NCBI GenBank assembly: GCA_947475065.1
Contig: CANJLB010000003.1
Span: forward strand, 20,214 to 84,213
Origin: Opitutia bacterium
Lineage (GTDB): Bacteria; Verrucomicrobiota; Verrucomicrobiia; Opitutales; Opitutaceae
Length of the DNA: 64,000 bases
Direction of reading: 5' to 3'
Shown here: one piece after another, positions 1 to 60,702 of the stretch
Position numbering within the stretch: the stretch's first letter is position 1
Layout: each line of letters begins with the position of its first letter
The notes under the pieces: model-generated
The model's input: only the letters and a program-made list of their open reading frames with translations
The model's database searches: none
What the model was told of the DNA's origin: nothing
Program-made: the position numbers and the translations under genes

Positions 1-1153
1 GCACTTCCCGAAATGAAGGATAGCCGCCGAACAGCTCGTCGCCACCAAGCCCCGAAAGCGCGACGGTGACACCGCCGGCTCGTGCGGCCTGGCTGACGTA
101 GTAGGTGTTGATGCCGTCGCCAGTCGGCTGGTCGAGCGTGGCGATGAGGGTGCTGATATCCGCGGCGACGCGGTGGCCCGTGAGTACGGTCGGGTGGTGT
201 TCGGCGCCGAGATGACGTGCGTTGGCGGCGGCGGCCTCGGCCTCCGAGTAGCCGGCTTCGTCGAAACCGAGGGAAAATGTCTTGAGGCGAGAACCGCCGA
301 GCTTCGTCATCAGCGCGACAACGGCGGTGGAGTCGAGCCCACCGGAAAGAAACGCACCCACGGGTACATCGGCAAGCAGGTGCGCACGGATGGTCCCTTC
401 CAGCTGGCCGCGCAGACCGGCGATGAACTCGCTCCGCGAGCTGCACGCAGTGAGACCGGCTGCCGCGTCGGCGGCGTCGCGCACGCTCCAGTAGATTTTT
501 TGCCGGAGCTGGCCGTCGCGCCAGATGGCGCTTTCGCCGGGACGCAGACTGAAGACGTTACGCCAGATCGTTTGGGGTGCAGGCACGGCCAGCCAGGCGA
601 GATAGGCGGCGGCGGCGGCCGGATCAATCGTGGCTGGCACACGGCCGGAGGCGAGCAGGGCGTTGAGTTCGGAGGCGAAGAGCAGTGTGCCGTCAGCCCC
701 CGTGGCGTAGTAGAGCGGTTTGATGCCAAAGGGATCGCGCGCGAGAAGAAGCGTCTGCTCGCGCATGTCCCACGCGGCAAAGGCAAACATCCCGCGCAGG
801 CGCGGTAACGCGGCTTCTCCCCACTCGGCCACGGCGGCGAGGAGAATTTCGGTATCGCATTGGGTGTGGAAAACGCAACCGGCCGACTCAAGCTGCGCGC
901 GTAGTTCACGGAAGTTGTAGATCGCGCCATTGAACACGATGTGCCAGCGGCCGTCAGGCGTGCTCATCGGCTGCCGGCCGTTGGCAGGGTCGAAGATGGC
1001 GAGCCGCCGCATGCCGAGCGTGGCCGGCCCCCACGAACTCAGGCCGCTGTCGTCGGGACCGCGGTGGAGCATGGCCGCATTCATGCGTGCGACGGCCATG
1101 GCACGCTCGGCAGGGGCGATATTGGCACTGAGAAATCCTGCTATGCCGCACAT
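1..1153 (-). CDS. asnB: asparagine synthase (glutamine-hydrolysing), partial; 3' end lies beyond window start
   Basis: Minus-strand translation from ATG (rc of cat 1151-1153) reads MCGIAGF... (N-terminal Cys of a class-II glutamine amidotransferase). Downstream it contains the SGGLDS PP-loop motif (rc of ~330-350). It is not in the ORF track because it has no stop inside the window. Confidence 0.85.
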   Translation of the reverse strand, partial: MCGIAGFLSANIAPAERAMAVARMNAAMLHRGPDDSGLSSWGPATLGMRRLAIFDPANGRQPMSTPDGRWHIVFNGAIYNFRELRAQLESAGCVFHTQCDTEILLAAVAEWGEAALPRLRGMFAFAAWDMREQTLLLARDPFGIKPLYYATGADGTLLFASELNALLASGRVPATIDPAAAAAYLAWLAVPAPQTIWRNVFSLRPGESAIWRDGQLRQKIYWSVRDAADAAAGLTACSSRSEFIAGLRGQLEGTIRAHLLADVPVGAFLSGGLDSTAVVALMTKLGGSRLKTFSLGFDEAGYSEAEAAAANARHLGAEHHPTVLTGHRVAADISTLIATLDQPTGDGINTYYVSQAARAGGVTVALSGLGGDELFGGYPSFREV

Positions 1154-1373
1154 GTGATGGAAGTGGGAAAGCGGCAGACCTGAGGCAAAGCCATGAAAAA
1201 TGGAGCAGGCTTCGCCCGGTCGCTTCCCGAGGAAGAAACCAGAAAAACTTTTGAACGATGTCTGCCCGTCACGGGTGTTTGATGGCTGGGGTTTTTACCC
1301 TAGCCGAAACAAAGAGAGAGCGTCCCGTCTGAAAGGTGCAATGCCATTGTGTGGCGCAGGTTGGACTGCGAAG

Positions 1374-1916
1374 TCATGGGGCGCAGATGGACGCGGCAAT
1401 TTCACGTGATTTTTCCAGTGAGAAAATTTTTTCCACGAGCAGCATGCCGAAATCAGTCGCCGTGCCGGCCCCGCGTGCAGTGAGCAGCCGGCCATCGGCC
1501 ACGGTGCGTTCGGCGGTGAGGATCGCCGGGAGCTCGGCGGCGACGGAAAAATGGGCCGTGTAGCGCCGGCCGGCGAGCAGGCCGGCGTCATGGAGCACGG
1601 TCGGCGCTGCGCAAATGGCGGCGAGCCAGCGGCCGGCCGCGTCGTGGCGTAGCACTGTGTCACGCACGCGCGGGTCGGCGCGGAGGTGTTGCACGCCGGG
1701 ACCGCCAGGCAGGACGAGTGCGTCGAACAGTTTTTCGCCGACGGCGGCCAAAGTGGTGTCGGCGTGGACCGTGAGGCCGTTCCGCCCGGTGACATGGATG
1801 CCGTCGCCTAGCGCGGCGGTGACGACTTCCGCACCGGCGCGGCGCAGCAGGTCTATGGGCGCCACCGCCTCCAATTCCTCAAATCCCTCTGGCAAGATGA
1901 TGAGTACCGTGGGCAT
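1374..1916 (-). CDS. DJ-1/PfpI (ThiJ) family protein
   Basis: 180-aa ORF starting MPTVLIILPEGFEELEAVAPIDLLRRAG..., with the conserved nucleophile-elbow Cys in AICAAP. This layout is typical of DJ-1/PfpI. Confidence 0.8.
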   Translation of the reverse strand: MPTVLIILPEGFEELEAVAPIDLLRRAGAEVVTAALGDGIHVTGRNGLTVHADTTLAAVGEKLFDALVLPGGPGVQHLRADPRVRDTVLRHDAAGRWLAAICAAPTVLHDAGLLAGRRYTAHFSVAAELPAILTAERTVADGRLLTARGAGTATDFGMLLVEKIFSLEKSREIAASICAP

Positions 1917-1974
1917 GGATAGGGATTGAAGCCACTAATGTCTGCTAAGGAACACAAATTTTCCGAGGCCTATC

Positions 1975-2799
1975 GTGGCCACCACGACTGCCTTGGTGCA
2001 AAACGGAAAGGCGGGCCTGCGCAATTTTCTGGTTCCTGTTTTTCCCGATACGCTATTACTTCCCGTCGTGTCTGACGCCAAATCCAAGCCGGAAAACCTG
2101 CTGCTCAATCTCGCCTGCAATGTCGGCGCGCCGTTTGCCATCCTCACTTGGTTGAGTGGCGCGCATCGGCTGGGGCCGAAATGGGGGCTGCTCGTCGCGC
2201 TGGCGTTTCCGCTCGCCTACGGCGTGCATGACTTCGCCAAACGGCGTCGGACCAATTTTATTTCCGTGCTCGGCTTTGCGAGCGTGCTCATCACGGGCGG
2301 CTTCGGGCTGATGAAGGTGGATGTATTCTGGTTCGCGGTGAAGGACGCGGCCATCCCGGCCGCCATCGGGCTCGCGGTGCTGGCCTCGGTCCGGACTAAA
2401 ACGCCGCTGGTACAGGAGCTGTTGTGCAACCCGCAGGTGATTGATGTGGAGCGTGTGGACGCCGCCCTGGCCGCACGCGGCACGCGGTCTGGCTTCGAGC
2501 GCAAGCTGCGGGAGGCTGGCTGGCTGCTGGCGGCGGCGTTTGGCGCGAGCGCAGGGCTGAATTATTTTCTCGCCCGCCACATCATCCGAAGCCCGCTGGG
2601 CACCGAGCTGTCGAACCAGGAGCTCGCGCGCATGCACTGGATGAGCCTGCTGGTGATCGGCTTGCCGAGCATGGCGGTCATGGCGTTTGCGCTCTGGCGG
2701 CTGCTCGATGGCCTCAAGGCGCTCACCGGCCTCACGCTGGATGAGATTTTACGGGCGGAACCGCCCAAGCCGCCACCCACCGGTGCCGGCAGCAATTGA
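1975..2799 (+). CDS. hypothetical polytopic inner-membrane protein
   Basis: 274-aa ORF with several hydrophobic helices (LLVALAFPLAYGV, VLITGGFGLM, AIGLAVLASV, LLVIGLPSMAVMAFALW). No recognisable catalytic motif. The true start may be internal. Confidence 0.5.
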   Translation: MATTTALVQNGKAGLRNFLVPVFPDTLLLPVVSDAKSKPENLLLNLACNVGAPFAILTWLSGAHRLGPKWGLLVALAFPLAYGVHDFAKRRRTNFISVLGFASVLITGGFGLMKVDVFWFAVKDAAIPAAIGLAVLASVRTKTPLVQELLCNPQVIDVERVDAALAARGTRSGFERKLREAGWLLAAAFGASAGLNYFLARHIIRSPLGTELSNQELARMHWMSLLVIGLPSMAVMAFALWRLLDGLKALTGLTLDEILRAEPPKPPPTGAGSN

Positions 2800-2893
2800 G
2801 TTTCACCGGCCCGGCTGAACAAAGCGGTGTCAACTGCGCTCACATGCAGAGCGACAAAATTGAAGAACTCCATTTGCCTTGCCTGCTGTGTGC

Positions 2894-2903
2894 GGGGGGG
2901 GGG
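2894..2903. repeat. G10 homopolymer tract in a convergent intergenic region
   Basis: tgcgggggggggggaagaag lies between the stop of the 1975-2799 ORF and the stop of proB. Confidence 0.6.
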
Positions 2904-2923
2904 AAGAAGCCCCGCGATCCGCC

Positions 2924-4036
2924 TTACAACAACACGAGATCGTTGCGGTGGACGACTTCGAGACGCTTGCGGCCGGGGTAGAGCGGATTGAGCTGGCCGC
3001 TGTTTTTGCCTGCGATGGTGGCAATCTCACCGTCGGCAAACGCCGTCTCGCCGCGCGCGAAGACCTTGCCGTCGGGGCCGGCGATGTCCACAACGTCGCC
3101 GGCGGCGAAGGTGCCCGCGCAGCCGGTCACGCCCACGGGCAGCAGGCTGCGTCCCTGCTCGCGCAGGACGGGGATGGCGGCGGCGTTGACGCGGATCGTG
3201 CCGGCCGGACGCTGGTAATAGGCCAGCCAGCGTTTGCGCGATTCCAACGGCAGGCCGCTGGGCACGAAGAAGGTGCCAGGATTGCGCCCGCTGAAAATCC
3301 TGGCGAGGATGTCGGGCTCCGCGCCGCTGGCGATGAACACGCCGCAGCCGGCCCGGGTGGCAAGGCGTGCGGCGGAAATTTTCGTCGCCATGCCCCCGAC
3401 GGCGGTTTCGCTGGCAGTGCCGCCGGCCATCGCCTCGATGGCGGGGGTGATTTTCTCCACGACGGGAATGATCGCGCCAGTGCCTTTCAGATCCATCAGG
3501 CCAGAAGCGGTGGAAAGGATGACGAGGTGCTGGGCGGCGACGAGGCTGGCGACCATCGCGGAGAGCGTGTCGTTGTCACCGACCTTGATCTCAGCGGCGC
3601 TCACCGTGTCGTTTTCGTTGATAATCGGAATGGCACCGTAGCCGATGATCTCGGCTAGCGCGGCCTTGACGCCTAGGTGTCTGGCGCGCTCGCGCAGGTC
3701 GTCGTGGGTGAGGAGCACCTGCGCGACGGTCAGGCCGTGCGGCTCGAAGCCGCGCTGCCACGTCTGCATGAGCAGGGACTGGCCGATCGCGGCGCAGGCC
3801 TGTTTCTGCGCCAGGGCCGAGGGACGTTTTTTCAGGCCGAGCCGGCCCATGCCTAGCCCGACCGCGCCGGAGGAAACGACGATGACCTCGGAGCCGGCGC
3901 GGCGCAACGCGGCGAGTTCGGCGCACACGGCGGCGATGCGCGCCGTGTCGAGCTGGCCGATGCCCGAGGTGAGCACACCCGTGCCGAGCTTGATGACGAC
4001 GCGTCGTGGGGCGGTGGCTGAATTAGTTCTCGACAC
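2924..4036 (-). CDS. proB: glutamate 5-kinase with C-terminal PUA domain
   Basis: RVVIKLGTGVL... ATP-binding N-terminus, amino-acid kinase fold, and a C-terminal PUA-like region (GEIATIAGKNSG...). The ORF-track start at 4240 adds an implausible P/S-rich 68-aa extension, so I chose the in-frame GTG at 4036 (370 aa). The start is uncertain. Confidence 0.8.
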   Translation of the reverse strand: MSRTNSATAPRRVVIKLGTGVLTSGIGQLDTARIAAVCAELAALRRAGSEVIVVSSGAVGLGMGRLGLKKRPSALAQKQACAAIGQSLLMQTWQRGFEPHGLTVAQVLLTHDDLRERARHLGVKAALAEIIGYGAIPIINENDTVSAAEIKVGDNDTLSAMVASLVAAQHLVILSTASGLMDLKGTGAIIPVVEKITPAIEAMAGGTASETAVGGMATKISAARLATRAGCGVFIASGAEPDILARIFSGRNPGTFFVPSGLPLESRKRWLAYYQRPAGTIRVNAAAIPVLREQGRSLLPVGVTGCAGTFAAGDVVDIAGPDGKVFARGETAFADGEIATIAGKNSGQLNPLYPGRKRLEVVHRNDLVLL

Positions 4037-4091
4037 GGAGGAGACGGAGATTGGGCCGGGAGGACCCGACGATGGGAGGCCAGGCCTGCGC

Positions 4092-4637
4092 TTATACCGC
4101 GAGCAGCTCCTTTTCCTTATGGGCGAGGTGCTGGGCGATGTCGGCAATGGACTTGTCGGTGAGGGTCTGGATTTCCTTTTCAGTCCGCTTGGACTCGTCC
4201 TCGGGGAGCTTGGCTTTCTTGAGGGTCTCGAGGGCGTCACGGCGGACGTTGCGGACGTGGACGCGGCCTTCCTCGGCGAGGCGGTTGGCGACTTTTACAA
4301 ACTCCTGCCGGCGTTCCCGGCTCATGTCGGGGAGGGGGATGCGGATGACCTTGCCATCAGGGATCGGGTTGAAACCTAGATTGGCCTCCTGGATACCCTT
4401 GATGATGGCTTTGACCAAGGAGGCGTCCCATGGTTGGACTTGGATGAGCCGGGCATCGGGTGTGGAGATGGCGGCGCAGCTTTTCAGCGGCTGCATCGAG
4501 CCGTAGGCCTCGACCATCACGCCTTCCACCATCCCCGGCGTGGCCTTGCCGGTGTGGATGCCGCTGAACTCGTGCAGCGTGTGGTCAACGGCTTTTTTCA
4601 TTTGGGCGGTGGCGGTGGTGACGACGGGATGTGGCAT
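4092..4637 (-). CDS. frr: ribosome recycling factor
   Basis: MPHPVVTTATAQMKKAVDHTLHEF...RRDALETLKK...IQTLTDKSIADI. This is the canonical RRF sequence and length (~181 aa) when started at the internal Met, residue 37 of the ORF-track ORF. Confidence 0.9.
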   Translation of the reverse strand: MPHPVVTTATAQMKKAVDHTLHEFSGIHTGKATPGMVEGVMVEAYGSMQPLKSCAAISTPDARLIQVQPWDASLVKAIIKGIQEANLGFNPIPDGKVIRIPLPDMSRERRQEFVKVANRLAEEGRVHVRNVRRDALETLKKAKLPEDESKRTEKEIQTLTDKSIADIAQHLAHKEKELLAV

Positions 4638-8688: not shown

Positions 8689-8762
8689 TGGTGCGCCGAG
8701 AGGGAATCGAACCCTCCTCTCAAGCTTGGGAAGCTCACGTTCTACCGATGAACTACCGGCGC
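8689..8762 (-). tRNA. tRNA-Gly (anticodon CCC)
   Basis: The rc reads GCGCCGGTAGTTCATCGGTAGAACGTGAGCTTCCCAAGCTTGAGAGGAGGGTTCGATTCCCTCTCGGCGCACCA. It has a 7-bp acceptor stem, D and T arms (GGTTCGATTCC), anticodon loop TTCCCAA and an encoded CCA. Confidence 0.9.
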
Positions 8763-30642: not shown

Positions 30643-31051
30643 TCACGCCTGGCGTTCACAGGAATTATCGTGCGCATCTGACCTGAAAAAAGCGAGTTGC
30701 GAAAACTAGGGTGTCGGGATGCTTGATCGCCGGAGCCGTGTCCCCATGTTCGCTTCCGTCTGAGTTCTTTCACCGCCTAAGGCGACGCCGCTTCCTCGGC
30801 GTCAACACGGGGGAACCAATATCCGCTGCGCTCTCTCGCGGCGGACGGGGCGAACGGACGCAGGCGACTGCGCCCAAGGTCACTTCCTAGGACCAAGCCC
30901 GTCAGCTAACCTCGTCGGCAATGGGAAGGGTGATCCACTAGGGCTCCCGCCTCGGCGGGATGTCCCCACGGTCGCTCCAACGCAATCGCACCGTCGTGTG
31001 CATACGGGAATACCGTGTGTGCCGCCGGGGCACTTCACGGAGATTAATCCT

Positions 31052-37614: not shown

Positions 37615-40551
37615 TCACTGGCCGAGCACGCCTTTGAGCAAACCGCTGGCGCCTTGCTGCAAGAGTGAGCCGGCACCCTTGGTCGCAGCACCGACGCCGC
37701 CGATGACCGCCCGCTCCGTCAGCCGCCCATAAAACGCCGTGGTGTCCGGTGCGCCCAACGTGCCACCGAGTTCGGGCAAGTCCACCGCCAGGGGAAAATA
37801 GCCCAGGCTGTCCGGCTGAGCGCTGACCAAACCGATGCTTTTCATCGCATCGCCCAGATTGCCGCGCGCTGCCACCTGAAATTGCAACGTTAGCGGCAGG
37901 GCGGCCAGCTCCTTGCCTTCGACATGGCGGACGCGCCCGTGACCGGCGAGGCGCACCTCGGGGGCGATGAGCGTGAGCTCTTCGAGCACCAGATCGTTGG
38001 TGGCGCCCCGCGACAGCGTCACACTGAGCTGATCGAAGTGAATTTCGTGCAGCAAATCAGAAATACGTGTAATGACCTTGGCCACATTGCCGGCCGTGCT
38101 ACTGACGCCACCCAGCAATCCGGCCACAGTGCCGACAATCGCCGCCCCGGTGCCCGCCACCGATGGTTTGCCGTCACTCGCTGCCAGCAGCCGGGTGACG
38201 CCACCCTTGCTGGTGAATTGGATTTTGCCCTGCGTCTGCGCGATCAGCGCATCAATGGAGGCCGCCCGGCCGGTGAGTGACACCGTCAGGTTCACATTGG
38301 CTTCCAGCGTGTGCTGCAGCGCCGCGAGAGTAAAGTCGGTCAGCGTCGCGTCGGTCATGAACGCGTAGGGTGTCGCCGTACCCGGCGTATGCGTCAGGCC
38401 ACCTTTGAGCACGAACGGCGAGGCCGGCGTGCCATCGAGCGTGCCATGTGCCTCGACCTGAGGGCCGCTGCCGTCAAAGAACATCGTGCCGGCGAAGCTG
38501 CTCGCGCGGTCCGGCGAGAAGACGATTTTCTTGAAAGCAAATTTCACCGTCCCTTTCACGCCCGCCCAAGGCGGCGGGGTGCTCGGCGCGGAAACAGGGG
38601 CGGTCCCGGGCTTCAGGTCGGCGAATGCCCCGATATCCTGGGCATAGAGCAAATCGCCCACCGCTTGCGCATCAATCTGCCAGCCACCGGCGTTGGTCGG
38701 GGTGAACTTGCCGCCCAGTGTGAGGTCGGATTTCTGCGTGCCGCGGGTGACGGTGACCGGCGCGTTCAATGCGATGCTTCCGTCGGCGGCGATGTCCGCG
38801 CGTAGATCGAGGGTGGCGTCGGGCAGCGCTTGCTTGGTCGGGGCGGCCACCAAACCGCTGACGGCGAGCTTGGCCGCGATCTCCTTTTTGTCACCGAGAC
38901 TCGCGGTGAAACTGAGGTTGGCCAGACCGGCTGAAACAGGCACCTGGGCGCCGAATACGGGCGATAACGCGGGCAATAACGCCAGATTTGGCATCTCCGC
39001 CAAGCCGGTGACTTTGAGCGGCTCCCGGGCGGCTGAACCCTGGCTGATTTGCACTCCCCTCAACGTCAGGCCAGCCACCGTCGGTGGTGGCGCAGTGACC
39101 GTCACGGCTGGCACCGTTGCCCTCCAGCCTTCCTTCGAATACTCGGCCGCAGCGGCGGGGAGCGTGATACTGCCCTGCCAGAGCGTCTGCCCTTCTTGCG
39201 TGACCACGCCGGCAACATCCAGTGCCTTCACGTTCAGAGTCACGACGCCACCATCCCGTGTCCCGGCTTCGATCAGGCCATTCACCCGGCCCTGGCTGAT
39301 TTTCAGGTCTTTGACCCACGGCTGCGCCCATGCCAGCGGCAGGTCCTTCAGCTCGATGCGCGCGAGCGCGACGGCAGGATTGGCGGCTGTCACCGAGAGT
39401 TTGTCGCGGTTAAATTCAAAACCCTGCAGCGCCTCCAGGATGATGACTGGCTGAGCCGCGCCGATGCGGACACTGAGCCGCGTTACGCTGACCAGGTCGC
39501 CACGCGAACGCAGGTCAAAGTCGGTGGTAAAGTCCATCTGACCCAATACACCCGTCAATTCGGGACGCAGGGCCTCAAGTTTCTCCACGTGGCCGTCCAG
39601 TTTTCCAACCGCCGTGATCTCCTTGAAATCACGACTGAGCCTCAGGGTCCCCTGCCCTTTCGCCTGAAACACCGGCAGCGGCATGCCGGCCAGAAACTGC
39701 CGGAACGGCACCAGATCAGCATCGCTGGCATCCAGCATCCATTTGCCGGTGAACGGCTGGCCATCGGCCGGGAGCTGTGCCTCCACGTTCACGAGCTCGC
39801 GGCTACCGGAACTTACGATGGCCGTGTAGCTCTCGCCCGTCGCGTCGCGCCCGGCCCGGACAGTGAGGTGTGTTTTCGTGCCGTCGGGGAATTTGGGACC
39901 GCTGGCGATGGCATCGGCGTTGAGGGCAAAACTCTGGATGGCATCGGGTGCATCCATGCGGATCAGGAGTTCGGCATTGGCCGCCGCTGTTTTGACCGGT
40001 GCGTCGGCGGTACTGGCTTCGTGACGGGTGGTTATTTTGAAAATCGCCTCCTTGCCGGAACCGAGGCCGCCGCCGCTCACCGTGAGGTGCGTGTGCCCGC
40101 CTGCTTGGATGACATCGCCCTCAATTTCGGCGGTGGTGAGCGACAGGGCGAAGGGCAACTTGAGCCGCTTGAAGATGCCATCGAACGCGGTGGCCGGGGT
40201 TGTGTTGGCCGGCGCCGCTGGCGTTGAAGTCAGGTCAACCGTCCAGCCTTTTGCGGTGAGACGGGCGATGTCAATTTGACCGCGCGCAGCGGCCAGCACC
40301 GGCAGTTCGACGTCGGCTGCGGGCAGCGTGAGCACGAGGCCGGACTGCGTGACGCGGATATTCTCCAGATGCACCGCGTGCAGGCCGATGGCTGCACGGC
40401 CGATCTCAATCTTAGCCCCCGGCACATTGGCGACAGCGCGGCGCACGGCCCAAGTTTGCACGGCGGGCGTGAAGGCGAGACCGACAAGCACCGCCACCAG
40501 CATCGCGCTTGCGCCAAGGAGGAGGAGCAAAATCCTAACGGGCTTTTTCAT
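37615..40551 (-). CDS. AsmA-family (AsmA/TamB-like) envelope protein
   Basis: Started at MKKPVRILLLLLGASAMLVAVLVG (N-terminal anchor). ~980 aa, Ala/Gly/Thr/Val-rich beta-rich sequence of AsmA-like type. The ORF-track N-terminal 63 aa are read through a MITE. Confidence 0.7.
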   Translation of the reverse strand: MKKPVRILLLLLGASAMLVAVLVGLAFTPAVQTWAVRRAVANVPGAKIEIGRAAIGLHAVHLENIRVTQSGLVLTLPAADVELPVLAAARGQIDIARLTAKGWTVDLTSTPAAPANTTPATAFDGIFKRLKLPFALSLTTAEIEGDVIQAGGHTHLTVSGGGLGSGKEAIFKITTRHEASTADAPVKTAAANAELLIRMDAPDAIQSFALNADAIASGPKFPDGTKTHLTVRAGRDATGESYTAIVSSGSRELVNVEAQLPADGQPFTGKWMLDASDADLVPFRQFLAGMPLPVFQAKGQGTLRLSRDFKEITAVGKLDGHVEKLEALRPELTGVLGQMDFTTDFDLRSRGDLVSVTRLSVRIGAAQPVIILEALQGFEFNRDKLSVTAANPAVALARIELKDLPLAWAQPWVKDLKISQGRVNGLIEAGTRDGGVVTLNVKALDVAGVVTQEGQTLWQGSITLPAAAAEYSKEGWRATVPAVTVTAPPPTVAGLTLRGVQISQGSAAREPLKVTGLAEMPNLALLPALSPVFGAQVPVSAGLANLSFTASLGDKKEIAAKLAVSGLVAAPTKQALPDATLDLRADIAADGSIALNAPVTVTRGTQKSDLTLGGKFTPTNAGGWQIDAQAVGDLLYAQDIGAFADLKPGTAPVSAPSTPPPWAGVKGTVKFAFKKIVFSPDRASSFAGTMFFDGSGPQVEAHGTLDGTPASPFVLKGGLTHTPGTATPYAFMTDATLTDFTLAALQHTLEANVNLTVSLTGRAASIDALIAQTQGKIQFTSKGGVTRLLAASDGKPSVAGTGAAIVGTVAGLLGGVSSTAGNVAKVITRISDLLHEIHFDQLSVTLSRGATNDLVLEELTLIAPEVRLAGHGRVRHVEGKELAALPLTLQFQVAARGNLGDAMKSIGLVSAQPDSLGYFPLAVDLPELGGTLGAPDTTAFYGRLTERAVIGGVGAATKGAGSLLQQGASGLLKGVLGQ

Positions 40552-40602
40552 GCCGGGAGCAAAGCCGGGACAATGGCGAAGGCAAGCCGGGTGGTCGTTG
40601 GG

Positions 40603-40723
40603 TAGTGGTATAGTTTTGGTCGGTGGTAGGTTGCGCGCTCGCCGCGCAACTCCGGCGACAGAGGGCAAACGTGGCGTGACGAGCACGCCACCTACCCCGG
40701 AAAATTCAAACTGTACCACTACC
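40603..40723. mobile_element. BIME/MITE-like element (REP-A + REP-B palindromes) flanked by 10-bp direct repeat GGTCGTTGGG
   Basis: The target-site-like duplication lies at 40593-40602 and 40724-40733. Terminal inverted repeats tagtggtatagtttt / aaactgtaccacta. Internal palindromes gtaggttgcgcgctcgccgcgcaac and gtggcgtgacgagcacgccacctac are the same units that flank the RAYT at 60 kb. Confidence 0.65.
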
Positions 40724-41116
40724 GGTCGTTGGGCGATCACCGGGACCGGTTCCAGCTCCTTCAGGCATCCCTTCCCACCGGCGTCTTGAACTCGGCGCTG
40801 AACGTTCGTCTGTGTTTTGGCATGGAGGACTCTGCCCCATCAATCCGTCCCCCGCCTTCGGCAAAGGCTGCGCCGCTACGCTTCCCCTGGCTCACAACAA
40901 CTCACAAAAATCGGCCTGCCCCCTCGGCTTGGCCGCCGCCCGCGCGCGGGCCGCAAGCGGCCTGGCGTCCGTTTTTCGTCACAACGATAGCCCAATGCGA
41001 AAGATTTTCCGAGGGATTCGGGCGGCAGCGGGCGTCTTTGGGGTGAAGCCCATCCACCCGACCACATAAACCTGCATCCTTCTCCCTTCAAAATTTTCAC
41101 CACCCAAGTTGCCTTC

Positions 41117-42298
41117 GTGCTGCTCGCATTTGCCTGCACCGCCAACGCGGCGACCCCCACCACCGCGACCAACGCGCGACTGGCAGCATTTGGACGGGTG
41201 AACCCCACCACCGGGGCCAACGCGCCACCCTACTCGCCTTACCACCCGCTGGCGGTCGCCCAACGCGATCTTCAAGGCATGGAGGCCAGCCTTGGCAGCC
41301 TCGCTCCGCAGTCGCCCGAGCGAAAAGCGCTGGAGGAGCGTGCCGCGCAATTGCGTGCCAAGATTGACGAGTCGTTCGTCATCTTCGGGCCAGGCATTCA
41401 AAAGCCAGGGCTTTATCCGGCCAAGCCAGGTCTCACCGTTTCCGAGGCCATCAAGCTGGCCGGCGGCATGGCACCCGATGCCGCCCCAGATTTATTTCTC
41501 ACCTTTGCCATACCGCATGCAAGAGGGTTGAAGGCGGCACGGCTGAACTGGGCCGGGAAGCTGGAGCCTGAGCCGCCTTTCGATCCCGCTCTCGCACCCC
41601 GCCGAGGGCAACCCGGAGCCGGCGTTGGCCCTCCCGGTGGTTCGCCAACTACAGGAGGAGGAGGGCCGGCCGGCCCCGGCCCCAGGGTTAGCTACGATTT
41701 CACCATCGCGGCCGGAGACTTGATCAGAACCTCGGCCAACGAATTCACTTTTTCGGGAGGAATCCCTCGCGATTTTCTTGACGCCCTTGACGCACACTTC
41801 GTGCTCGATTTTCAGGGGCACGCCGTCGTGCCGCCGGAGCTGGCCGAGGTGAAAGTGCCACGCATCCGGGTGGCCAACAAAAATCCCGGCGAAATCCTCA
41901 ACCTCTACAACGCGCTGTCCGAAGGCCAGCCTGCGCTTGGGCGCTGGAGACTTGAGGGCACTGCGGAAAAACCTGACTTGCTCGCGCTCTTTAAGAGCCG
42001 CCCCATGACGGTCGCCGGCCTGGCGGATGGTCAGCCCCTCCGCGCCAAGGCCGTGTCGCTCGGTGCCGTCCGGCAGTCGCAGTGGGAAAAACTGCCGGGA
42101 ATCATCACCGACAGCGTCGCCCTGCTGGCGCAAAAGCTGGACGCCGCCGAAGCCGAAAAATTTCACCAGCAGTTCGGCGGCAGCGTGCAGGTGAACACCA
42201 CCACCCGCATGCTGCTGATCATCGGCTCGCCGGCCTACATCGAGTTCGTCGAGTCCGTCCTCGCGGCGGAACAAGCCAACAACCCGCGCCAGTTTTGA
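41117..42298 (+). CDS. hypothetical secreted protein with Gly/Pro-rich segment
   Basis: 393-aa ORF (GTG start) with a hydrophobic N-terminus and GQPGAGVGPPGGSPTTGGGGPAGPGP low-complexity. No recognised domain. It lies upstream of the ECF sigma gene. Confidence 0.4.
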   Translation: MLLAFACTANAATPTTATNARLAAFGRVNPTTGANAPPYSPYHPLAVAQRDLQGMEASLGSLAPQSPERKALEERAAQLRAKIDESFVIFGPGIQKPGLYPAKPGLTVSEAIKLAGGMAPDAAPDLFLTFAIPHARGLKAARLNWAGKLEPEPPFDPALAPRRGQPGAGVGPPGGSPTTGGGGPAGPGPRVSYDFTIAAGDLIRTSANEFTFSGGIPRDFLDALDAHFVLDFQGHAVVPPELAEVKVPRIRVANKNPGEILNLYNALSEGQPALGRWRLEGTAEKPDLLALFKSRPMTVAGLADGQPLRAKAVSLGAVRQSQWEKLPGIITDSVALLAQKLDAAEAEKFHQQFGGSVQVNTTTRMLLIIGSPAYIEFVESVLAAEQANNPRQF

Positions 42299-43376: not shown

Positions 43377-43457
43377 GTCACCCCTGCGCTGGCAGCACGA
43401 AGATGCCCGGCATATCGGCCAGGGCGCGGCACCGCCCAGGTTTGCACAGCGGTTGTC

Positions 43458-43562
43458 CGGTGGTAGGTTGCGCGCTCGCCGCGCAACTCGGGCGACAGAG
43501 GGCAAACGTGGCGTGACGAGCACGCCACCTACCCCGGAAAATTCAAACTGTGCCACCACCGG
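43458..43562. mobile_element. BIME/MITE-like element, second copy (~95% identical core to 40621-40723)
   Basis: cggtggtaggttgcgcgctcgccgcgcaactcgggcgacagagggcaaacgtggcgtgacgagcacgccacctaccccggaaaattcaaactgtgccaccaccgg. Confidence 0.65.
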
Positions 43563-43900
43563 CCGGCGGCGGCACCATCACATGGCCCATGACAGCGGCG
43601 AACAGGGTTTCAGATTATTCAAGAGTGGAGGACCGAATCCTGTCCCGGAAGGCTCGTTGCCCGTACCGCATCAAGTTATGCCAACGTCTGTTAACATTGG
43701 GACGATGGGCCCGATAGCGCCGGGAAGGTTCGGTCCCGGCTCTCCCGAGCCTTTTGGGCTACACTGAGCGGCGCGCCCAGCGGGCACGCCCTACCTTGGG
43801 ATCACCCGATTAGTCTGTAGCTCAGCAAAATCCCCGTCTCCGCAGCCTGAGCCCCTTGGGCGGCTCCCCTGCCCTGCCGGCCATCCAGCCGCCTCACGCC

Positions 43901-59890: not shown

Positions 59891-60035
59891 GAGTTGCGCG
59901 ACGAACGCGCAACCTACACGGATCGGACGTAGGTGGCGTGTTTGCCGCGCCTCGTTTGTCCTGGCGTAGGTTGCGCGCTGGTCGCGCAACGTTTTTCCCC
60001 AGGCCCCGGAGTTGCGCGACGAGCGCGCAACCTAC
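59891..60035. repeat. REP array (three palindromic units in alternating orientation) 10 bp downstream of the RAYT stop
   Basis: gagttgcgcgacgaacgcgcaacctac (59891-59917), gtaggttgcgcgctggtcgcgcaac (59966-59990), gagttgcgcgacgagcgcgcaacctac (60009-60035). Confidence 0.8.
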
Positions 60036-60044
60036 ACGGACCAA

Positions 60045-60563
60045 TCACCCCAGCCACTCGGGGAATGGCTGGCCGTTGTCGGTCAGGTCGCGTAACCACT
60101 CCCAGTCTTCGTCGCGGCAGTAAAAATATGGCCACGTTTCCCCCTCCGCCACCAGCCCTGCCCGGGGCGGGTTCAGCCAGAGGTAGCGGATCACGCTCTC
60201 CGCCGAATCCTCCGGGCGGAGCCGATGGTCGTAGAAATTCTCCTGCCAGCCGGCGCCCTGCGGGCGCAGGAGCGCCTGCGTCTTGGTCTTGAGCCGCGCC
60301 ATGGCCTGCGAGAGCGTGAGCCGTGCGCCCAGCGTGAAAAACAGGTGCGCGTGGTCGGGCATCACGGTCAGGCAGCGCAGCGCCCACGCGCCGTCGGCGG
60401 TCAGGCGGTGCGTCTCGGCGAGCAGAGCGGGGGCGATGCCGGGGACGAGCACGGGCAGGCGCGGTTGAACGCAGACCGTCACGAAATAGTCCGCGTGCGG
60501 CACAGAGGCGCGGCCCCGGCGCAAGGCGTTGGGTCCAGTATTCCGTTTCGGCGGCGGGGCCAT
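60045..60563 (-). mobile_element. REP-associated tyrosine transposase (RAYT, IS200/IS605 TnpA-like)
   Basis: 172 aa from the internal Met. HxH motif in MPDHAHLFF and catalytic Tyr in ENFYDHRL. It is flanked on both sides by REP palindrome arrays, the defining RAYT context. Confidence 0.8.
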
Positions 60564-60575
60564 GCGGGGATTGTG

Positions 60576-60702
60576 GTAGGTTGCGCGCTCGTCGCGCAAC
60601 GTTTGGTTGTCCGGCGTAGCAACAAGGTGGCGTGCTCGTCGCGCCACGGTTGTCATCCGCCGACCCCTGATCCCTGAGTTGCGCGACGAGCGCGCAACCT
60701 AC
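60576..60702. repeat. REP array upstream of the RAYT (REP-A, REP-B variant, REP-A inverted)
   Basis: gtaggttgcgcgctcgtcgcgcaac (60576-60600), gtggcgtgctcgtcgcgccac (60627-60647), gagttgcgcgacgagcgcgcaacctac (60676-60702). The first two lie within the ORF-track N-terminal extension of the RAYT ORF. Confidence 0.8.

Follow-up and report, generated by a model that had tools for sequence, protein, structure and literature searches.

Positions 40601-40723 of the 64,000-nt stretch of DNA from an Opitutia bacterium analysed here (below, 'the window') very probably represent a non-autonomous miniature transposon (MITE) of the IS1 family which carries, as its cargo, a native Opitutaceae REP doublet. 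The element is a chimera of two known element types, represented by one complete and one truncated copy (Table 1). Because its ends and its target duplication belong to a group of IS1-family transposases, the MITE does not constitute evidence for movement driven by REP sequences and their REP-associated tyrosine transposase (RAYT); at most, a REP doublet has been carried by another transposon.

A sequence-only reading of the window had proposed a BIME/MITE-like REP element in the leader of an AsmA-like gene, and had taken it to indicate that the REP family is, or was, mobile as a non-autonomous unit. The miniature transposon upstream of this gene is real, with matching ends, a duplication and no open reading frame (ORF). 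The claim of REP mobility is not borne out, given that both termini and duplication belong to an IS1-family DDE group and not to a REP/RAYT system, and the term 'BIME-like' does not apply to what is a single doublet at each of two loci, without any array.

Boundaries, termini and target-site duplication

The element is delimited by inverted repeats of 16 bp, GGTAGTGGTAYAGTTT(GAATTTTCCG), which are located at 40601-16 and 40708-23 and are complementary at 15/16 positions. Terminal inverted repeats of ~14 bp had been noticed before (TAGTGGTATAGTTT at 40603-16, and TAGTGGTACAGTTT as the reverse complement of 40708-21) and are indeed present, but their actual length is 16 bp; likewise, the length of the element, previously given as 121 bp, becomes 123 bp when it is set by the ends of the family. 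The strand assigned in Table 1 was chosen to put the conserved IRL-type end first, so that the element points toward the downstream TamB-like gene.

Both termini are directly abutted by the octamer GGTCGTTG, for which an 8/8 match at fixed ends has a calculated chance of ~3e-5 at the local base composition. The longer repeat GGTCGTTGGG, from which a 10-bp duplication had been proposed, is present on both sides and found exactly twice in the 64-kb window (40593-40602 and 40724-40733; 0.14 expected by chance), but consists of the 8-bp duplication plus GG, where the left GG is the start of the terminal repeat and the right GG is ordinary flank. Since the left and right flanks outside the two GGTCGTTG copies are unrelated, the repeat does not belong to a longer native duplication, which the sequence-only reading had named as a finding that would speak against its claim. 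The predicted empty site reads GGCAAGCCGGGTGGTCGTTGGGCGATCACC.

Table 1. Features of the MITE, its second copy and the associated genes (positions in the window)
Feature	Position	Strand	Comment
MITE, 123 bp, no ORF	40601..40723	-	both ends of the IS1-family group
Left 8-bp target-site duplication GGTCGTTG	40593..40600	.	abuts terminal repeat; identical to 40724-40731
IRR-type terminal repeat GGTAGTGGTATAGTTT	40601..40616	+	15/16 identical to family consensus GGTAGTGGTACAGTTT; fits GGnnnTG
Linker TGGTCGGTG, 9 nt, terminal repeat to REP-A	40617..40625	+	8/9 identical to doublet flank in Opitutus sp. MAG locus L079
REP-A, GTAG-tagged palindrome GTAGGTTGCGCGCTCGCCGCGCAAC	40626..40650	+	7 copies with at most 3 mismatches in the window
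Doublet spacer, 20 nt	40651..40670	+	homologous to spacers of arm-less doublets L026, L079 and L094
REP-B, inverted REP variant, reverse complement GTAGGTGGCGTGCTCGTCACGCCAC	40671..40695	-	20/25 identical to REP-A
IRL-type terminal repeat, reverse complement GGTAGTGGTACAGTTTGAATTTTCCGGG	40696..40723	-	outer 26 nt: 26/26 identical to IRL of L122-L128
Right 8-bp target-site duplication GGTCGTTG	40724..40731	.	abuts terminal repeat
Copy 2, one-ended, truncated	43458..43562	-	102/105 (97%) identical to 40621-40725
AsmA/TamB-like gene, 978 aa	37615..40551	-	weak precomputed TamB_N match; homologues carry PF05170 AsmA
RAYT gene	60045..60563	-	NCBIfam NF047646 REP_Tyr_transpos, 82.7 bits (cutoff 80)
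REP cluster around RAYT gene	59893..60702	.	REP-A at 59893, 59966, 60011, 60576 and 60678; REP-B-like at 60623

Except for the 9-nt linker and two bases adjoining the IRL-type end, the interior of the MITE is the REP doublet (the junction of the IRL-type end and the doublet reads TTTCCGGGGTAGGTGGCGTG), and the inserted unit reaches 25 and 28 nt past the doublet, up to the IS1-type ends with their 8-bp duplication. The G+C content is 40% for the arms, 69% for the REP doublet and 64% for the window. As a single strand, the MITE is predicted to fold at -38.5 kcal/mol (z = -4.7 versus shuffled controls), with the termini paired to each other and with REP-A and REP-B each forming a hairpin of its own. 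A match to Rfam MIR1437, a family of long-hairpin miRNA precursors, was discarded as not meaningful (26 bits, far below the gathering score of 168); its extent coincides exactly with that of the element, on either strand, and it reflects hairpin shape only.

The termini belong to a group of probable IS1-family elements

A metagenome scan with the right arm, CGGAAAATTCAAACTGTRCCAC, as the query yielded 8 loci on contigs with ~49-56% G+C, in which GGTAGTGGTACAGTTTGAA forms the inverted termini of transposable elements that differ in size: (i) MITEs of 274 bp and 305 bp at one site (L125/L127 and L122/L123), (ii) elements of 3.5 kb which encode a transposase of 275 aa (L124 and L126, with one end in L128), and (iii) a cassette of 2.5 kb (L129) which lacks a transposase and carries a DNA methylase gene. 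The ends of the window element match those of the transposase-bearing elements L124, L126 and L128, and of the plasmid elements L133 and L134, at 26/26 and 15/16 positions, and the IS1-family elements which share these termini do not contain REPs.

The length of the duplication is likewise that of the group. In addition to GGTCGTTG in the window, five independent insertions are flanked by an exact 8-bp duplication, that is, CACTGCCG at L123/L127, GCAAAATG at L126, CGTCAGTG at L129, CGCTGGTG in the Mesorhizobium loti plasmid CP050295 and AAGCCGAG in the Acidiphilium plasmid NZ_CP041717. Among the six duplications (L123, L126, L129, L133, L134 and the window), 4/6 end in TG and the others in CG and AG, which may reflect a weak target preference of the IS1-family group.

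The best NCBIfam model for the 275-aa transposase is transpos_IS1 (E = 2e-13, 50.6 bits), its score against Pfam DDE_Tnp_IS1 is 23.9 bits (cutoff 24.1), and weaker similarity is found to IS6. Since the NCBIfam score is below the curated cutoff of 100 bits for IS1, the group represents a divergent branch of this family. Homologues with 53-55% identity on the Mesorhizobium and Acidiphilium plasmids are annotated as 'IS1 family transposase' and reside in elements of 3.4 kb and 2.6 kb with the same kind of ends. A search for homologues of the transposase returned E<=1e-40 for all 8000 scored candidates; among the 120 candidates listed, most have a precomputed match to PF03400 and roughly one in two bears the name IS1 family from a source (PGAP or JGI). 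The group is of the single-ORF, passenger-carrying type, and a similar subgroup is probably the one that ISfinder calls ISMhu11-like. In the ISfinder summary, IS1 is listed with direct repeats of 8-9 bp and with GGnnnTG ends (PMC10425158 Table 8; PMC6807381), a pattern which GGTAGTG, the start of the group's ends, fits; GGnnnTG ends and 8-bp duplications are also common to IS6/IS26 (PMC6807381).

Two members of the group exhibit features of their own. The cassette at L129:211-2688 contains an N6/N4 DNA methylase (435 aa) and an unannotated ORF of 297 aa, and has the appearance of a mobile insertion cassette in which a restriction-modification system may be carried. At L124:731-4360, the 3.5-kb element (792-4300) lies between the arms of a 60-nt inverted repeat (59/60), is not flanked by a simple duplication and has an extra internal IRL-like copy at 1028, and is probably nested inside another palindromic or mobile element.

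The REP cargo and its relatives in Opitutaceae

REP-B differs from REP-A by compensatory changes in the stem, and its reverse complement resembles REP-A; the two thus make up an inverted doublet, GTAGG…CCTAC, arranged as a GTAGG-hairpin, the spacer and a hairpin-CCTAC. As had been stated from the sequence alone, REP-A and REP-B are the palindromes found around the RAYT gene, which is flanked by five REP-A copies and one REP-B-like copy (spanning 59893-60035 and 60576-60702) and which also matches Pfam Y1_Tnp (31.3 bits, cutoff 23). Away from this gene, the only REPs in the 74 kb examined are those of the two doublet loci of the chimera. The RAYT gene, 20 kb away, accounts for the origin of the REP family but does not explain the insertion of the MITE.

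A scan of species-representative genomes with REP-A, GTAGGTTGCGCGNNNNNCGCGCAAC, as the query, in which the source species is apparently not sampled, detected REP-A at no fewer than 117 loci, apparently all in Opitutaceae or Verrucomicrobiota MAGs; this holds for all listed records in which a taxon is given, and a few bear the title 'uncultured bacterium' only. The genomes with which the source organism has its REP family and its genes in common likewise place it in the Opitutaceae (Verrucomicrobiota). GTAG-tagged REPs have been described as abundant in Opitutus terrae (PMC3733652). The flanks of the REP-A copies in relatives are mutually unrelated. An inverted partner is located within 0-55 nt for 57 of 128 REP-A copies (~45%), with spacing modes of 0 and 17-19 nt, and the 20-nt spacer in the window is near the latter mode; for the other copies of the 128, a search over 110 nt revealed no inverted partner. 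Together with its spacer, the doublet in the window can be aligned to arm-less doublets of other Opitutaceae; to judge from such sequence comparison, the REP doublet is native to this family. The similarity of the 9-nt linker to a doublet flank is weak evidence from sequence that the linker may have been brought in together with the doublet.

None of the REP-A loci from the genome scan (>=117) holds a copy of the chimera, and the terminal repeat and arms of the window element are absent from the ~0.89 Mb of fetched loci that were scanned, including the 128 REP-A copies. For 53 non-redundant doublets, flanking direct repeats were not commoner than in a permutation control. Hence, the tabulation of flanking repeats, which the sequence-only reading had put forward as a check on REP mobility, revealed for the REP copies of relatives neither repeats above chance nor arms, and this is part of what that reading had said would speak against its claim.

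Further observations concern the REP family as such. In the 128 REP-A copies (L005-L121), the two positions directly 5' of the GTAG tag are mildly enriched, -2 in C and -1 in T. The doublets at L079:1615-1725 and L094:5083-5193, both from Opitutus sp. MAG CTOTU41445, share a similar outer sequence, C/T-TCGGC-T/A-TGCTCG, beyond CCTAC, and the dispersed unit in this MAG may therefore exceed the doublet.

A truncated second copy

A core with ~95% identity had been noted at 43458-43562 and is indeed present (Table 1), although only one terminus is found there. Copy 2 comprises REP-A (43463-87), the spacer, REP-B (43508-32) and an IRL-type end (43533-43560); the REPs are exact, and the IRL-type end has 2 transitions relative to copy 1. 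On the left, the homology to copy 1 ends ~5-12 nt beyond REP-A; an IRR-type terminus was not detected there with up to 5 edits, and no clean duplication surrounds the copy. The flanks of copy 2, at 43417-43433 and 43561-43576, contain an imperfect direct repeat of 16/17 nt (GGCCAGGGCGCGGCACC / GGCCGGCGGCGGCACC), the right copy of which adjoins the IRL-type end without a gap. As a candidate long duplication around copy 2, this repeat is not significant, having a chance of ~0.05 in GC-rich DNA.

Because the same junction of IRL-type end and doublet is present in both, copies 1 and 2 share a single chimeric ancestor. Of the two, copy 1 represents the insertion of a complete MITE, and copy 2 is a truncated relic; the spread of the chimera rests on two loci, since copy 2 is devoid of one end and of a clean duplication. 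Extending the search by 10 kb beyond the right edge of the window revealed no further copy, so that one complete and one truncated copy are present in 74 kb. A scan of viral contigs gave no match to the IRL-end/REP-B junction, a blastn comparison of the element with plasmids gave none either, and an IS1-family transposase was found neither in the window nor in any of the fetched Opitutaceae loci.

Insertion upstream of the AsmA/TamB-like gene

The MITE is located 51 bp upstream of the ATG (40551) of the AsmA/TamB-like gene, for which a weak NCBIfam match to the TamB N-terminus is found as well. This start agrees with the called genes and with an orthologue of 82% identity. A longer ORF on the same strand (37615..40740, -) was rejected as an artefact; its 63 extra codons traverse the MITE and begin at a GTG in the flank, just outside the right duplication. 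For the closest orthologue (82% aa identity), the upstream DNA can be aligned over no more than ~45 bp before its ATG, and synteny is absent further out. Both members of the 90% cluster are C-terminal fragments.

No empty site was found, all contigs with an identical AsmA/TamB-like gene also carrying the element. Among the 4 contigs listed with the identical gene, 3 independent metagenome contigs end inside the element, that is, 42 nt into it, in or near the REP-A hairpin (L003:1-42 and L004:1-42), or 67 nt into it, at the boundary between the spacer and REP-B (L002:1-67). These ends are probably assembly breaks near the REP palindromes and are therefore uninformative on copy number.

A consensus scan of 40400-41250 revealed no promoter-like or terminator-like site and, for this reason, a regulatory effect of the MITE, which adds two GC-rich hairpins upstream of the AsmA/TamB-like gene, is a conjecture. 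The donation of an IS promoter by the MITE was considered and rejected: the promoters of the autonomous elements (read by eye) lie beyond the retained 26-nt IRL. Elsewhere in the window, a c-di-AMP riboswitch of the ydaO/yuaA type (30764-30935, +; 52.4 bits) and a tRNA gene (8692-8762, -; 61.3 bits) score above their Rfam gathering scores.

Discussion

Three other accounts of the element have to be weighed. If the whole unit were a REP/BIME-type element mobilised by the RAYT, its termini would be extensions of the REP structure and a 10-bp duplication would have arisen on insertion. Such an account could draw on the match between the REP-A/REP-B hairpins and those flanking the RAYT gene, on the RAYT being a bona fide member of its family, and on reports of REP dimers within longer palindromes in other phyla (PMC3733652, section 7). 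It is at odds, however, with termini that agree at 26/26 and 15/16 positions with REP-free IS1-family elements, with a duplication of the 8-bp length typical of the IS1-family group, and with the relatives, where 128 REP-A copies are devoid of arms and 53 doublets are devoid of duplications above chance. Moreover, HUH/Y1 transposases of the IS200/IS605 type are not known to generate target duplications. We thus regard mobilisation by the RAYT as largely refuted and as highly improbable. Still less probable, to the point of being negligible, is that the flanking repeat and the inverted termini arose by chance or by a local segmental duplication, in the absence of any transposition. Short repeats are common in GC-rich DNA, and the imperfect 16/17-nt repeat flanking copy 2 (chance ~0.05) might be viewed in the same light; yet both termini are immediately adjoined by GGTCGTTG (~3e-5 by chance) and have their counterparts in an external family, and the flanks outside the repeat are unrelated.

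The third account concerns the order of events, in that a very small IS1-type MITE or a full IS was present first and a RAYT then inserted the doublet, an event possibly favoured by the MITE hairpin in single-stranded DNA; alternatively, the doublet was captured by an internal deletion or by two flanking IS insertions. That doublet and spacer are a conserved unit in other Opitutaceae, that the 9-nt linker resembles the doublet flank in L079, that REP dimers inside palindromes are known elsewhere (PMC3733652) and that associations between REPs and IS elements have been described (PMC3184786) all agree with such a history. On the other hand, a REP-free form of the 123-bp MITE was found neither in the metagenome scan nor in the fetched loci, and insertion and capture end in the same structure. 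We consider this history a serious possibility which falls somewhat short of an even chance.

The reading we prefer is that of an IS1-family MITE with a REP doublet as cargo, and for this element a mechanism can be outlined. Ends and duplication length were read directly from the DNA, the assignment to IS1 is the best-scoring one for the cognate transposase, and the catalytic steps are taken from the established behaviour of IS1-type DDE enzymes. By this analogy, an IS1-family DDE transposase supplied in trans would have bound the two GGTAGTGGTAYAGTTT termini and linked them to a target opened by an 8-bp staggered cut, and gap repair would then have yielded the GGTCGTTG duplication. The arms are identical to ends in contigs of ~52% G+C; their G+C content of 40% within a window of 64% G+C suggests that a horizontally acquired IS was joined to a resident REP doublet. 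The doublet could have entered in either of two ways: by insertion just inside the IRL end through the action of a RAYT, or by being retained in a deletion that removed the remainder of the IS. Afterwards, the chimera would have spread at least once, and copy 2 would later have lost its other end.

The element shares features with several known systems. It resembles IS1-family insertion sequences and their derivatives in its GGnnnTG ends (GGTAGTG) and its 8-bp duplication, and non-autonomous derivatives which share the ends only are likewise found in the IS1-family group; in contrast to the MITE and cassette derivatives of that group, the window copy comprises 123 bp and has an interior that is not IS-derived but a REP doublet. 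The cargo, two inverted GTAG-tagged palindromes with a short spacer, resembles REPINs and GTAG REP dimers (Bertels & Rainey 2011, PMC3116915; Nunvar 2010, PMC2817692; Di Nocera 2013, PMC3733652) and, as in the REP-RAYT system, the same REPs flank the RAYT gene in the window and the family is abundant in Opitutaceae. REP doublets and RAYTs together constitute the REPIN system, which is devoid of IS-type ends and of duplications (PMC3116915, PMC2817692). Unlike a REPIN, the inserted unit is not bounded by the REPs themselves and possesses IS-type ends and a duplication, whereas the arm-less doublets in relatives do have REPs as their bounds. With E. coli BIMEs the element shares REPs in alternating orientation and an intergenic location, but it contains a single doublet, lacks all of the linker motifs conserved in BIMEs and has transposon ends as its boundaries. 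A parallel in layout is provided by GTAG-15 of Anabaena variabilis and CGTC-1 of Halothiobacillus neapolitanus, in which a REP dimer is located between mutually inverted arms (PMC3733652, section 7). These arms were described as 'target palindromes' with their origin left unexplained (PMC3733652, section 7), while the arms in the window are identified as IS1-family termini with a duplication.

The element also corrects a tempting inference, in that a target duplication beside REP palindromes is no evidence for RAYT-driven mobility. Its insertion immediately upstream of an envelope-biogenesis (AsmA/TamB-like) gene deserves attention, and an effect on the expression of this gene would be measurable. 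More generally, it indicates that REP doublets can be moved by a second, unrelated transposition system. That REP doublets in this lineage use DDE-type IS1 ends as a second vehicle, such that an HUH-dependent repeat is dispersed by an unrelated transposase, is a speculation which we consider unlikely; the finding that the only REPs away from the RAYT gene sit inside the chimera fits this idea without establishing it. For REP dimers flanked by palindromic arms, IS termini provide an explanation that is concrete and can be checked; if true, a second-vehicle origin might explain the REP dimers found in long palindromes in Anabaena and Halothiobacillus.
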